A stretch of 64,000 nucleotides of DNA from Chrysomallon squamiferum. Its lineage: Eukaryota > Animalia > Mollusca. The position numbers were made by a program, and so were the translations under genes. Below are positions 8,760 to 30,930 of this stretch, one piece after another. The stretch covers positions 24,800,001 to 24,864,000 of the forward strand of contig CM022679.1 of the NCBI GenBank assembly GCA_012295275.1, given 5' to 3'. Positions within the stretch are counted from its first letter, which is position 1, and each line of letters opens with the position of its first letter. The notes below the pieces were generated by a model that was not told the origin of the DNA, searched no databases, and worked only from the letters and a program-made list of their open reading frames with translations.

Positions 8760-8870
8760 ATGATCGGGGAAAAGAAGGAATCAAGTAAAGAACTGAAGGA
8801 AAGAATGGCCTGTTTCGGTAAAGTAGTGTCGGGTGCCAAACAATTGTTTACTTCAGAAGCTGCTAGTAAT
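8760..8870 (+). CDS. Probable first coding exon of the aegerolysin-like repeat / TRPM locus
   Basis: MIGEKKESSKELKERMACFGKVVSGAKQLFTSEAASN follows the TATA box; candidate GT donors near 8867-8873 (exact donor uncertain). Confidence 0.55.
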
Positions 8871-8892
8871 GTGTTAGTATTATGTTTTGTTG

Positions 8893-8939
<47 letters not shown>

Positions 8940-9247
8940 TTACGTTTATAATAGAATGTTTATATTAACCTATTAATTAATTAAATAAATAATTGTATAA
9001 TTATTTTATGATTAAATTTTAAAACATACAAAACATATTTAAATAGGCTTCCTAACTTTGCATAATAAAATCAGCTTTGCTTAATTATAGTTTTGCTAAC
9101 TAGGAAAATTAATAATCTGTTACATATTATTAATCTCAGAATAATATGATGTTACTTTACATTAAAATAACAAAGAAAAAAGACAAAAATGTTAAATATC
9201 TTAATGATGGATATTTTATTTTGTGCTTTTTTTTGTTTTAAAAACAG

Positions 9248-9693
9248 CGCGCAGAGGAACATGATAGGGAAATTCCTGAAGTCTCCATAATCATTGATGT
9301 CTGTAATGAAACAAACAGCAGCACCTCCATTTAGAATCAAGTCATTTTGCAGAAGGAGAATGGATTCAATGATCTTTTCTCGAGATCATCGAACCCGATG
9401 AAAGGCTTGGACGTGCCACAAATCGTCAATCTGAACGCGAAGGTGTGAAAGGTGGCGTCGAATTTGAAATAGAAAACACTGGAAAGTATTTTTACATTGG
9501 GTTTGAGAACTCTATAGGTGGTGACATCAAGTCTTTCATAGCTGTTGATGATAATAAATCAGCAAAGTGGGCTTGTGAGAATATCAGTGGTGGTGCTGAT
9601 AAGAAGCTGACATCTCATGGTTACTATCTGACATGTTGCACAGAAAACCCAGCAGAATCAAAATTTAAGAAACTAATTTTCACTATCAGACAG
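9248..9693 (+). CDS. Aegerolysin/actinoporin/Cry34-like beta-sandwich domain, repeat exon 1 (frameshift ~9315, in-frame TGA 9370-9372)
   Basis: Reconstructed VSIIIDVCNETN/QHLHLESSHFAEGEWIQ*SFLEIIEPDE..ATNRQSEREGVKGGVEFEIENTGKYFYIGFENSIGG..LIFTIRQ. Fits the pattern NxTxxxLxxxxxxxxxGxW..IxP..GxxG.Y..F/WxN. Ends in a phase-0 donor CAG|gtcagt. Family assignment by eye. Confidence 0.6.
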
Positions 9694-10181
9694 GTCAGTT
9701 TAATATCTATTTATTTGTGTAATATCACATATATATATATATATATAACTAAGAACTTTATGTATATATGAAATAAGTACTCTGTCGTTAAATTTTGTTG
9801 TGAGAAATAATTGATTTAGTTTACTCATTTTTATTAATTTGACAGGTTTTTATTTTACATTTAATATACTTACTCCTGCTGTACTGTTTCTGAGTAACAC
9901 TAATGTAAATAAGATCCCTTATTTAGATCTTTCTCAAATCTTAATAGGTTCAAATGATCCATTCAAAACAAAAAGTGTTTAACAAATTAGTTTATCAAGT
10001 GGAAAAAATATGTTAGAGAACCAAATACATAGATACATGTCGTAATACAGGAACAACAAACAACAAGAAGAAGAATACATAACAACAGTAATGATGGAAA
10101 TTTTATATTATTTACTGAGGAACAAATAAATCAATAAATTAACGATTAGCACAAACTTAATATTTTTATTTTTTTTTTCAG

Positions 10182-26773: not shown

Positions 26774-26828
<55 letters not shown>

Positions 26829-29067
26829 GCTTAACCTAATATATTTAGTGATAATATGAACATTTTATAATGATAATCATAACATTTTTTATTATTAGTG
26901 CAAAGTGATCATTCTAATTCTAATAGTTATGAATTTTATGATATTTAATTTTTGTCTATGTATTTGTTTTATTTATGAATACATACTTATTTTTCAGCTG
27001 ATTGATCTGTCATATTTCTTCTACATCTTCCTTGTGTTTGTGATCAGTTTTGGTGTTGCCTACCATGTCAACATGTACCCAAACTCACCACAGTCATGGA
27101 CGATTCTCAGAGATGTGTTACGATTGCCATACTTTCAGATGTATGGTGAACTTTTCCTAGACAGAATTGAAGGTATTTATTTTATTTTTTTTACTAGAGT
27201 TATTAGAGAAAACTGTATAGTTATAATGCTGATCTAACAATGATGACTCCATGAGTCAGAGATAATAGATTTCTATTAAAACACACTACCCAAAAAGGAA
27301 AATTGTTTTCCTTAAGTTTCAGTTTCAGTATAATTCTTGCTATGATCTATAAATATAAAATTATAAAACGTCATTCTCATTTATACAGAATCAATACTTA
27401 GTCTGTCAATTAGAACTTTTTCAAATACAAAATGTCTTGCCTTAGCATCTGCTTTTTCAAAAGATGTTTCTAAAAACTGACAATTCTTTATTCTGAAGGC
27501 AAAACAAATATGTGATATTATTTCAGAACATGGAGATTTGACAGTAACATTCAAGAAGTATTTCCTTATCACTTGTACTTATTTATTTACTTACATACTA
27601 TTCTTGTGAAAAAACACCAGGCTGTATAAGGTATACAAATACTTACTTACTTACTTGTACTTGTTTACTTTATTTGTTCGGTTATTTACTTTATTCACTT
27701 ATTATTCAGTTGAAGAAATATCTAGCTGTACATATAATCATTTAAATATTTACTTACTTGTACTTCTATATTTTATTTTATTTATTTTTTTTTATTTATT
27801 ATACTTTATTTTTTCTATATTTTTATTTTATTTATTACTTATTTGTTTTCTTTTATTTATTTATTATTTTTATTTATTTTTATTTTATATTTTATACTTT
27901 TGTTTTATTTACTCACTTTACTTCTATATTTTATTTATTTTACTTGTACTTTATTTTATTTATTTTTTTATTTTTTTTTTATTTTTATTTTATTTACTTT
28001 ATATTTTATATTTTTTTACTTTTGTACTTCTATATTTTTTTACTTTATTGTACTTTTATATTTTATTTTTATTTACTTTTATATTTTATTTATTTTACTT
28101 TACTTTTATATTTTATTTACTTTTTTACTTTTATATTTTATTTACTCACTTAAACTTATTTTTATTTATTTGCTCACTTTGTACTTCTATATTTTATTTA
28201 CTTGCTCACTTGTACTTTTATTTTTATTTACTCACTTGTACTTTTATTTTTATTTACTTACTTTGTACTTCTATATTTTATTTACTTATTTTATTTACTT
28301 ACTTACTTATACTTCTATATTTTTTTATTTACTTATACTTTTTATTTTTCTATTTTTACTTACTTACTTGTACTTGTTTTATTTATTTACTTAACCACTT
28401 GTACTTGTTTACTTATTTTCTTAACCACTTGTATTTGTTTATTTATTTACTTATTATTCAGGAGAAGAAACATCAGGCTGTACATGTAACCAGTCTATTT
28501 GGCAGGAGGATCCTGATCAGCGATGTCCAGAAGCTAATTGGCTGAGCCCTGTGTTGTTGTCTGTCTACCTGCTGATGACAAACATTCTCCTTGTCAACCT
28601 TGTTATTGCCATGTTCAGGTTAGTCAAGGATTTTCGAGTCACACTTTGCTGTTATTGCAGAAGATATGGCAGATAGTTGTTAAACTCTTTTTTTTTTTTT
28701 TTTTATATATATATATATATATTTAATATATAATATGAATACAGTTTGCATACTACTACATTATTATTTATTTGAACTTCAAATATAAATCTTACAATAA
28801 ATAAATAATTACAATATAATAAGAAGTGTATTTCTCCTGTTTTTAACATCATAAAAAATCCACTTTTATTTGGTACAATAACATTATTTTTCAATGACTA
28901 ATTTCTGTCAGATGCTGATTTTCTTTATTTATTATTTTCTTTCCTTCTTTCTTTATTTCTTTACTTATTTTAACATTTCTATTTAAGCAAAGCTGTGATA
29001 AAGAAAAGAAAGTCAGCCTCCATGCAACTTGACAAGTTTATTTCTTTTCTTAATTTGTTAACATAAC

Positions 29068-29099
<32 letters not shown>

Positions 29100-30693
29100 C
29101 AAGTTCTACATTTAATACAATTCAAGTCAAATCAAGAAAAGTATGGAGTTTTTATCGCCTCTCTCTCATAACTGAATACCGTGATTGTCCCACTCTGGTT
29201 CCTCCTTTTATCATTTTGGAGCATTTGTTCCAGGTTTATTAGATGGACACTACGCAAAACAGTCTTGAAAAAAGAAAGTGAGAAACCAAATACTTTAATA
29301 AGTACATTATTTTATATATCTGTGATAGTAAAACAGTATTAAAAAATATTGTGAATTAGTGAAATGGAGAATAATACTGAAAACATGTCTGTTGCAATTA
29401 CTACTCAAGATATTTATTTCAAATGTTATTAATCAGCCAAAGTGTTATTTCTGTACATCAGAGATAGTGTTTTGTTTTCAACTATTACAAATATATAACA
29501 AGTATGTTGAAGTTATTGACAGTGCATTTTCTTTTCTTGATATAGATATTACCTTATGATCAGAAAATAAGAAAATTCTGATACTTTTAAAGCAGTTGTT
29601 TTATTTTGTCCCTTCTGACAAACAATACTATAAATAAATAAATAAATAAATAAATAAAAAAATAAATAAAGAAAAAAAAGTAATAATAACAAATTAATAA
29701 AAAAATAAATTAAAAAAAATAATAATAATAGAAATATATAAATAACAAATAAAAATAAAAAATTACTTATAATAATGTGAATTAAATAGTAAAAATATTT
29801 TGATAAAAAAATTAGGTTTATCCAAATGATTATTTTGTTAAATATAACAAGTATGTAGATATTTATAAAAAAAAATTCATGACACAGTGAACCAGTAATT
29901 ATGTTAAACTGGGTTTTTTTATTTATTGTAGTGAAGAAGAAGGAAGGCAATGACGATCTGACTCAGTTTGAGAAAGTAGCTACAAACCATTACCTGTCTC
30001 ATACTAACCCATTTGAAAAACAGAAACCTGATAATGGAGACAGCAAAACAAAAAAAAGTAATTTTAATATTTTGTAGAATTTTGCTGGATTTTTTTTCAA
30101 ATATTGTTCAGTGCACTGAGGCTTACATTCAGTCAATTTCTTCCATCAAAACTGTTGGTGTGTGTGTTCTGCAATCACTGTTACTGTATGTAATGGCAAG
30201 ATGTGATAACTTGATAAATTTATAAAACATCGGTTACTGACCAGAAATAAAGCTTTTTGGGAGAGAACTATTTTTACTTTGAAAATTACTTGTTATTTAC
30301 TTATGTATAATGTTCAAAATTAGTATATAACAGCTAGTTTGAATCCTATAACACTATTTTGAGAACAGTTTTCATTTAAAAAATAACAAATAAATTCCTA
30401 TTTCAGTTAGTCATGCATGACTGATGTTTCAGAAAGCTGTGGTCTGTGCTATCTTCCAGTTTAACATTGTTTTCACATATTGTCATATTCTTTTATTAAA
30501 AATGTGTTCAAGACTGCATTTATTTCACAGTGCCTGGACAACCTGTCACAAACTTTTTATCTTCCTTTTCTTTTTAGTTTCCTATCTTCTTGTCAAAAAT
30601 TAAAAAAAAAACCTGTATATTTCTGTGTGTATATGTTTTCTATTTATTTGTATTGCATTTTAAATTGAATATCAGGAGAGACAGCATTTTAAG

Positions 30694-30733
<40 letters not shown>

Positions 30734-30930
30734 CATATTTATTTTTATTTTGCTGTTAGTTCAATGTGAGTATAGATTGTGTGGGATGTGGGTGAGTTTC
30801 TACTTATTTTTATTCCATTTTCAGTTCAGTATCAGATGAGACAGAGGACAAATTTAGAAAACAGAATAATGAGAAGATTGATAAGATTATAAAGATGTTG
30901 ACTGACATGAAACAGCAAACACCAACCTGA
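12827..30930 (+). CDS. TRPM: TRPM2-like transient receptor potential melastatin cation channel, ~23 exons, no NUDT9-H domain, several frameshifts
   Basis: Approximate exons: 12827-12907 (FKQRECSKY), 13323-13491 (CQCGR..WH..DSFGEINF), 13952-14132 (YVRL..WNLPVPKLLISVTGG), 14579-14742 (AWIITGG..GIATWG), 15196-15375 (LDHNHSHFILVDNG), 16680-16846 (IPVIVIEGSGRAAD), ~17432-17550, 17909-17975, 19283-19389 (QLKLALEWN), 19881-20034, 20394-20444, 20759-20885, 23458-23607 (LFIWAVLFNRKEMAELFW), 24008-24107, 24822-25047, 25380-25637 (APVTKF), 25953-26096, 26428-26682 (WNKFD..IGPKVIMI), 26998-27172 (PYFQMYGELF), 28462-28618 (NILLVNLVIAMF), 29104-~29298 (TRP helix VWSFYR), 29931-30057, 30824-30930 (TGA). Confidence 0.95.
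18395..19149. mobile_element. Non-autonomous DNA transposon/MITE-like element in a TRPM intron
   Basis: Imperfect ~70 bp inverted termini: tggttccacccagagggacaaaggctca..atgtagataat vs attatctacat..tgagcctttgtccctctgggtggtacca. No ORF; TSD not identified. Confidence 0.65.
27580..28455 (+). repeat. G-poor low-complexity intronic satellite (TTTA/TACTT/TTGTAC units)
   Basis: Degenerate ttta/tactt repeats over ~0.9 kb; yields spurious F/L/Y/I-rich ORFs. Confidence 0.9.

Follow-up and report, generated by a model that had tools for sequence, protein, structure and literature searches.

Does the forward strand of this stretch carry one gene or two? The window, that is, the whole 64,000 nucleotides that were analysed, comes from the mollusc Chrysomallon squamiferum (assembly GCA_012295275.1, contig CM022679.1, positions 24,800,001 to 24,864,000), and its position 1 is the first letter of that stretch. 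An array of three exons encoding an actinoporin-like domain stands there upstream of a TRPM channel gene. An earlier note, made from the letters of the DNA, had read the two as a candidate single TRPM channel with a three-domain N-terminal array. That reading is not supported: two of the three domain exons and the candidate ATG exon are unreadable as parts of one frame, the nearest relative is a stand-alone protein, and none of 120 TRPM relatives carries the domain. The three exons are likely to be the remains of a separate three-domain actinoporin-like gene that lies upstream of the TRPM gene and is probably not spliced to it. The copy of the array in the window is most likely a pseudogene, or at best a null allele, and non-functional.

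The tandem array and its reading frames

Alignment resolves the plus strand between about 9150 and 11760 into three paralogous tandem units of about 870 bp, each consisting of an exon and its downstream intron. A self-BLAST of the whole 64 kb window aligns 868 nt of units 2 and 3 at 83% and yields no additional copy of the unit. The DNA is AT-rich, with a G+C content of 0.20-0.35 per 2-kb interval, and its intron-exon structure is eukaryotic. The exons assigned to the actinoporin-like gene are:

8760-8817, plus strand: candidate ATG exon of the actinoporin-like gene; 58 nt, donor GT at 8818, ends in phase 1
9248-9693, plus strand: domain exon 1, frame-broken; 446 nt, stops in all three frames
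10182-10591, plus strand: domain exon 2, frame-broken; 410 nt, stops in all three frames
11064-11453, plus strand: domain exon 3 (protein P0001); 390 nt, 130 amino acids, the sole open phase 0-0 exon
11944-12009, plus strand: candidate terminal coding exon of the actinoporin-like gene; enters in phase 0, 21 codons and a TAA at 12007-12009

The earlier note described three paralogous phase 0-0 exons. Their tandem paralogy is upheld by the alignment, and so is the observation that each repeat exon ends in a donor without a stop: all three share the donor ...ACTATCAGA(A/C)AG with GTCAGT beyond the cut, in phase 0. The claim that all three are open in phase 0-0 fails for exons 1 and 2. In exon 1, a TAG at 9332-9334 stops the entry frame, and the frame changes between about 9310 and 9331. 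The frame that encodes the conserved C-terminal part is interrupted by a TGA at 9307-9309 and another at 9370-9372, the latter inside the domain, and is open only from 9373. In a tblastn comparison, the TGA of exon 1 falls within a block aligned to a protein of the vent snail Gigantopelta aegis, with GEWIQ*SFLEIIEP in the window against GEWVKTPNPTIIKP. The motif IDVCNETN.HLHLESSHFAEGEW..IEP, which had been taken as a continuous reading of the first repeat, is not one, and its dots hide a frameshift and a stop. Exon 2 differs from exon 3 by insertions or deletions of +1 and +7 near 10245-10275, at its 5' end; a TGA at 10257-10259 stops its entry frame, and the conserved frame is open only from 10253. 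A different acceptor for exon 1, at 9383-9384, would give a 103-amino-acid partial domain in phase 0 and was ruled out because the phase 1 of the ATG exon does not fit it.

The same discontinuity affects the start of the array. A candidate ATG exon, as described in the earlier note, is present at 8760-8817, and the supposed continuity into the repeats is not: being 58 nt long, this exon ends in phase 1 and fits the frame of no domain exon. No single open frame therefore leads from the ATG exon across the array to the TRPM gene, and only exon 3 can be joined in frame to position 12831. At the other end, the actinoporin-like gene would terminate at the in-frame exon 11944-12009, which is preceded by a good acceptor (..CATTCCATTGCAG) at 11943 and followed, 100-125 nt downstream, by the poly(A) signals ATTAAA at 12106 and AATAAA at 12131.

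The divergence of the units also points to decay. Exons 2 and 3 are identical at 281 of 315 positions (89.2%), and the introns that flank them at 271 of 303 (89.4%) and 87 of 96 (90.6%). The ratio of non-synonymous to synonymous substitution rates (Ka/Ks) is 1.72 between repeats 2 and 3 (6.0 synonymous against 37.0 non-synonymous changes), 0.70 between repeats 1 and 3 and 0.85 between repeats 1 and 2. Because exons and introns have diverged to the same extent and the Ka/Ks values lie around 1 or higher, the array gives no sign of purifying selection, and the pattern fits neutral drift after duplication. Diversifying selection, judged on three sequences only, could stand in place of drift.

Transcript evidence was taken from Logan contigs of three metatranscriptome runs and one DNA-like run (X1), which match the region 8600-20100 at 89-99% identity; the comparison listed the best 15 of 53 joints and 12 of 50 indel differences. 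Records X2-9 and X3-17 cover 8658/8723-8808, and X3-17, 265 letters later, also contains 9438-9509. An additional G follows 8765 in other contigs. Exon 3 is represented in X2 records 10-13, which cover 11162-11454 at 92-95% identity and end at its donor. Among the 15 of 53 joints listed, none leads out of 11453, be it to 12831, to 12827 or elsewhere, a result that is neutral with regard to a fusion. Splice joints within the TRPM gene are seen from 14742 to 15197 and from 15375 to 16684. A joint from 12085 to 12232, found in all four runs, skips 146 letters, has non-intron ends and is anchored by 23 letters on its shorter side; it was set aside as probably a repeat or a deletion variant.

Fold and relatives of the array domains

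Searched with the three domains of the window, Pfam returns no family at E <= 10, and a single domain finds no match among PDB sequences. When 1.84 billion representative proteins were searched exhaustively with a profile at a cut-off of E <= 0.001, 28 relatives of 67-464 amino acids were retrieved; 25 of these were scanned against Pfam. None of the 25 reaches a Pfam gathering score. The only two matches lie below threshold: P0005 matches Anemone_cytotox (PF06369) at E 0.0084, with 16.2 bits against a cut-off of 25, and P0026 matches Nakanori at E 1.5e-04, with 22.1 bits against a cut-off of 27. The aegerolysin family PF06355 is matched neither by the window domains nor by the 25 relatives.

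More sensitive comparisons place the domain. A profile built from the 31-sequence alignment matches, among PDB chains, Cry34Ab1 (4JOX) at E 1.1e-08 and 38.3 bits over profile positions 22-107. Weaker matches to bryoporin (E 0.0042) and fragaceatoxin C (E 0.011) cover profile positions 18-98 only. With the same alignment, AlphaFold predicts the exon 3 domain with a predicted local distance difference test score (pLDDT) of 91.6 and a predicted template modelling score (pTM) of 0.86; a model built from the three window copies alone reached a pLDDT of 49 and was set aside. Searched against the PDB with Foldseek, the exon 3 model gives 39 matches at E <= 0.001. They are led by sticholysin II, FraC, equinatoxin II and bryoporin at template modelling (TM) scores of 0.79-0.82 (E 1.6e-06 to 8e-05), followed by Nakanori (0.77), HALT-1 (0.69), Cry34Ab1 4JOX (0.68) and fungal fruit-body lectins (0.56-0.65); ostreolysin A and pleurotolysin A lie at about 0.5, and thermostable direct hemolysin is also matched. 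A protein-language-model search led to clusters of aegerolysin, FB_lectin and Anemone_cytotox proteins, in some of which 14-28% of members carry PF06355, and is used here as a lead only.

The aegerolysin, actinoporin or Cry34 fold that the earlier note had guessed from a motif is thus borne out by the confident model, by TM scores of about 0.8 to actinoporins and by the profile match to Cry34Ab1, and the structure search with the 11064-11453 translation puts the domain among actinoporins, Cry34Ab1 and ostreolysin A. In the exon 3 model a strand runs from residue 2, so that the domain starts at its first beta-strand. Single-domain relatives carry 40-90 extra N-terminal residues, which are absent from the domains of the window and of Gigantopelta. 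The modelling supports the view that the window domains are actinoporin/aegerolysin-type beta-sandwiches without the N-terminal helix region. As judged by sequence comparison, they form a divergent actinoporin/Cry34-like family, which goes undetected by every Pfam model.

The best match in the profile search is an uncharacterized protein of Gigantopelta aegis (XP_041361978.1, LOC121377950; 464 amino acids, E 6.6e-27, three matched stretches). It consists of an 18-residue N-terminus beginning MLGE.., three tandem domains and a 27-residue basic tail. The window array has the same layout: its N-terminus is short and begins MIGE.., each of its three domains starts with the first strand, and its basic tail is short. 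The two differ in that the Gigantopelta gene is annotated as an intact, stand-alone protein and the window copy has a broken frame. Judged by eye alone, the window ATG exon and the Gigantopelta N-terminus do not resemble a signal peptide. The other named member of the family is a hypothetical protein of the mussel Sinanodonta woodiana. None of the 28 family members exceeds 464 amino acids, and a word-indexed search for longer family proteins, which is a weak kind of search, found none.

In a tree of the domains, the six domains of the two multi-domain genes form one set (support 96/95) apart from 15 single-domain proteins. Within this set the Gigantopelta domains cluster together (86/80), and so do window exons 2 and 3 (98/97; Ks 0.09). 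Because the Gigantopelta domains group with one another and window exons 2 and 3 do likewise, the multiplication of domains in the two lineages would have been at least partly independent, or the copies have been homogenised.

Three groups of characterised proteins are instructive. Actinoporins (sticholysin II, FraC, equinatoxin II, bryoporin, HALT-1; PF06369) share the beta-sandwich with the window domain at about 10-14% identity, and are single-domain proteins, in contrast to the three tandem domains of the window. In actinoporins, an N-terminal amphipathic helix of about 30 residues inserts into the membrane to form the pore. This pore-building region is lacking from the window domain exons. 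Cry34Ab1, which we take to be a member of the aegerolysin family, and the aegerolysins ostreolysin A and pleurotolysin A are small lipid-binding sandwiches without a helix, as the window module appears to be from its sequence and model. Cry34Ab1 (4JOX) is the strongest sequence-profile match to a solved structure, although the aegerolysin Pfam model is unmatched by the window domains. No gene for a MACPF or Cry35-type partner was seen, and no search aimed at one was made. Nakanori and the fungal fruit-body lectins (5H0Q, XCL, SRL, ABL) have the same fold and bind lipids or glycans without forming pores, which is the mode of action proposed here for the window family. The likeness is one of fold, and these proteins are fungal and single-domain, unlike the window array.

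By analogy with these proteins, an intact member of the family would attach multivalently to membrane lipid or glycan by way of its three beta-sandwich modules. It would not be a classical pore former, because the membrane-inserting actinoporin helix is absent.

The TRPM gene and its relation to the array

Downstream of the array, on the same strand, lie the following features:

12827/12831-12907, plus strand: first recognisable TRPM exon (..KTLQRFIISNFKQRECSKYAKMDKSK..), with FKQRECSKY homology; leaves in phase 2 to 13323
13323-30930, plus strand: remaining TRPM exons (SLOG/MHR, TRPM2-like domain, transmembrane region, C-terminal tail), with the stop at 30928-30930
15327-15329, plus strand: TRPM frame break in a SLOG exon; ..NIYGGER* in one frame, KIEFRAKLEKYISQK in another
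A-run near 19922, plus strand: second TRPM frame break; X1 contigs (217 of 254) and an X2 RNA contig have one letter fewer
19955-19957, plus strand: in-frame TGA in the TRPM gene, inside a 5-codon insertion relative to relatives

Pfam identifies SLOG (PF18139) in four exons (E 1.2e-07 to 1.6e-14) and the TRPM2-like domain PF25508 (E 7.6e-10), and tblastn with Batillaria and Lottia TRPM proteins covers the exons from 13330 to 30056. By these homologies, 12827-30930 is a TRPM channel gene with SLOG/MHR, a TRPM2-like domain and a homologous transmembrane region. The FKQRECSKY exon of the earlier note is thus present on the same strand, with TRPM exons following it to about 30927. No NUDT9-H exon is found in the window, and among 1284 high-scoring segment pairs no match to a TRPM relative falls outside 12000-31000. 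TRPM2 proper has a C-terminal NUDT9-homology domain, which the window TRPM lacks. The nearest mollusc TRPM relatives are likewise without PF25969 and PF00293, while vertebrate TRPM2 has PF25969.

The closest counterparts are mollusc TRPM2-like and TRPM-like 2 channels (Lottia, Littorina, Babylonia, Batillaria, Haliotis, Patella), which are about 50-53% identical to the window protein over 836-958 residues and share with it the motifs FIxxxxKQREC and CxCG at the start of homology. They differ from it by an N-terminal extension of 190-380 amino acids that is not found in the window, and the window copy has two frame breaks and an in-frame stop. The extension measures 265-381 amino acids in 22 of the 25 best-matching mollusc TRPM relatives. 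In the mollusc TRPM2-like proteins P0040-P0058 it is long and mostly of low complexity, with islands of the form ..SVGSERELDD.., ..PRY..Y.EM...MS..DPF.. and ..GTYT.. before KQREC. Four Octopus proteins (P0038, P0039, P0059 and P0062; 989-1423 amino acids) have very high scores in the SLOG region and list only the TRPM SLOG families of Pfam, with no ion-channel domain.

A fusion of the two modules finds no parallel among relatives. Of 769 TRPM relatives found, the 120 listed were compared with the domain profile, and at E <= 10 not one of them matched; the same comparison recovered three domains in the control P0004. The architecture is equally absent on the side of the domain family, all 28 members of which have 464 amino acids or fewer.

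The junction itself depends on which of two neighbouring acceptors is used; their phases are as the earlier note had given them: AG 12825-12826 corresponds to phase 2 and AG 12829-12830 to phase 0 from 12831, both confirmed by the frames. The N-termini of 5 of 18 relatives align back to 12825-12830, and the lysine encoded by 12828-12830 corresponds to lysine in four and to arginine in one. This alignment weakly favours the first AG, in phase 2, which is incompatible with exon 3: when exon 3 is joined to it, 4 nt upstream of the second, a stop follows after 11 codons. The TRPM gene would then have one or more 5' exons of its own, ending in phase 2 and joining AG 12825-12826, which were not found in the window.

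Several candidate starts were considered for the TRPM gene. An ATG exon at 11891-11959 (phase 0, fitting the second AG only) was not adopted and has no support; the same applies to out-of-frame ATGs inside the domain exons and to a few weak upstream candidates. An unspliced first exon could begin at the in-frame ATG 12732, which lies in a (TG)n run. This start is judged unlikely because each change of a repeat unit shifts the frame of the dinucleotide run and because 12459-12819 is lacking in one X1 contig. In that contig four letters stand in place of 12459-12819, including the (TG)n run, a difference that has the appearance of a structural polymorphism immediately 5' of the first TRPM exon.

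A number of observations weigh against the view that the array is the relic of a separate gene. Exon 3 is intact, ends in phase 0 and is in frame with AG 12829-12830. Beyond its donor, X2 records 11 and 12 continue for 39 and 26 further letters, which are unplaced. No TRPM start exon is found in the 12.8 kb upstream, where a profile of 17 N-termini, run in six frames, matches only 12828-12905 (E 4.7e-05; next best E 2.6), and a scan for ATG exons with good donors yields no convincing phase-2 ATG exon. The resemblance between the Gigantopelta tail and the candidate terminal exon is by eye only. Finally, the TRPM frame too is broken in this assembly, at 15328 and 19922, so that errors of assembly or differences between alleles could account for some of the indels in the domain exons.

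In one alternative the TRPM gene starts more than 12.8 kb upstream, beyond the window, and the array is nested in its long first intron in the same orientation. The long N-terminal extension of the mollusc relatives contains conserved islands, none of which is found in the window, and the first recognisable TRPM exon needs an upstream phase-2 donor; both agree with such an arrangement. On the other side, a caspase-like stretch at 1045-1521, on the opposite strand, would have to sit in the same intron. The window TRPM is only about 50% identical to every relative and may simply lack the extension. The ATG at 12732 would also allow a start close to the gene, yet its surroundings are missing from one X1 contig, as noted above. 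We regard this nested arrangement as somewhat improbable.

Another alternative keeps the actinoporin-like gene separate from the TRPM gene and makes it an intact, functional three-domain gene, with the frame breaks due to assembly errors or confined to one haplotype. The quality of the assembly lends it some weight. The conserved TRPM frame is broken at 15328, where most X1 DNA contigs (depth 317 of 464) and an X4 RNA contig have two letters fewer and where the second frame reads KIEFRAKL.., and again near 19922, where other contigs are one letter shorter. The assembly either contains indel errors or represents a haplotype or paralogue that is decaying as a block. The frame change of exon 1 and the extra G after 8765 both sit in short homopolymer runs. 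RNA contigs at 89-96% identity cover exon 3 and connect the region of the ATG exon with an exon resembling repeat 1, which means that transcripts come from some closely related copy. Set against this, the TGA at 9370-9372 is a substitution-type lesion inside a conserved block and the 7-nt insertion of exon 2 is not in a homopolymer, so that these two are less likely to be artefacts. No indel in 9248-9693 or 10182-10591 appears among the 12 of 50 indel differences listed, and the equal divergence of exons and introns, with its Ka/Ks values, argues in the same direction. An intact gene is improbable.

The weakest alternative is the chimeric channel in its reduced form, in which a splice from 11453 to the second AG (12831) joins at least exon 3 to the TRPM gene and one or more actinoporin-fold modules serve a TRPM channel as an N-terminal lipid sensor: only 1.4 kb separates exon 3 from the TRPM exon on the same strand, and the open frame, the missing TRPM start and the unplaced contig ends listed above could be read in its favour, but exon 3 has no ATG exon that fits its frame, the other two domain exons are unreadable, a terminal exon and poly(A) signals intervene, and neither family of relatives offers a precedent, which makes it very improbable. 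The specific splice of exon 3 to AG 12829-12830, giving a TRPM with an N-terminal actinoporin-fold lipid-binding module, is if anything more remote. The product would be a channel that carries its own sensor of membrane lipid or damage, an architecture unseen in the 120 TRPM and 28 domain relatives.

Significance and neighbouring genes

As the likely remains of a separate gene, the array bears on the known range of actinoporin-like proteins. Actinoporin-like proteins, tandem gene duplication and pseudogenes have been described in molluscs (PMC9645577). Table 1 of that survey of mollusc actinoporin-like genes gives 0 genes for Gigantopelta aegis (PMC9645577), and the divergent family described here therefore appears to be uncounted in that table. 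In the literature, searched mainly at the level of titles and abstract openings, neither tandem multi-domain actinoporin-like proteins nor a fusion of an actinoporin with a TRPM channel came to light.

The family includes a sub-branch that combines three beta-sandwich modules, all without the helix, in a row through tandem exon duplication, and this would broaden the architectures of the actinoporin fold in animals. A protein with three such modules would be a natural multivalent membrane binder. The locus also serves as a caution, since same-strand neighbours with compatible phases can mimic a fusion.

The remaining genes recognised in the window lie on the minus strand. An 880-amino-acid open frame encodes a Toll-like receptor, with matches to LRR_8 (E 3e-40) and TIR (E 1.4e-09), and three exons match caspase (Peptidase_C14). 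The open reading frame at 1045-1521 contains a stretch nearly identical to the caspase exon 43983-44192, which suggests a second caspase copy; it has no Pfam match at E <= 0.001. A single exon matches an AAA-type ATPase (PF00004, E 1.6e-07). Their positions are:

1045-1521, minus strand: open reading frame with the caspase-like stretch
41148-41477, minus strand: caspase exon
42985-43383, minus strand: caspase exon
43983-44192, minus strand: caspase exon
50025-52664, minus strand: Toll-like receptor open frame
58794-59069, minus strand: AAA-type ATPase exon

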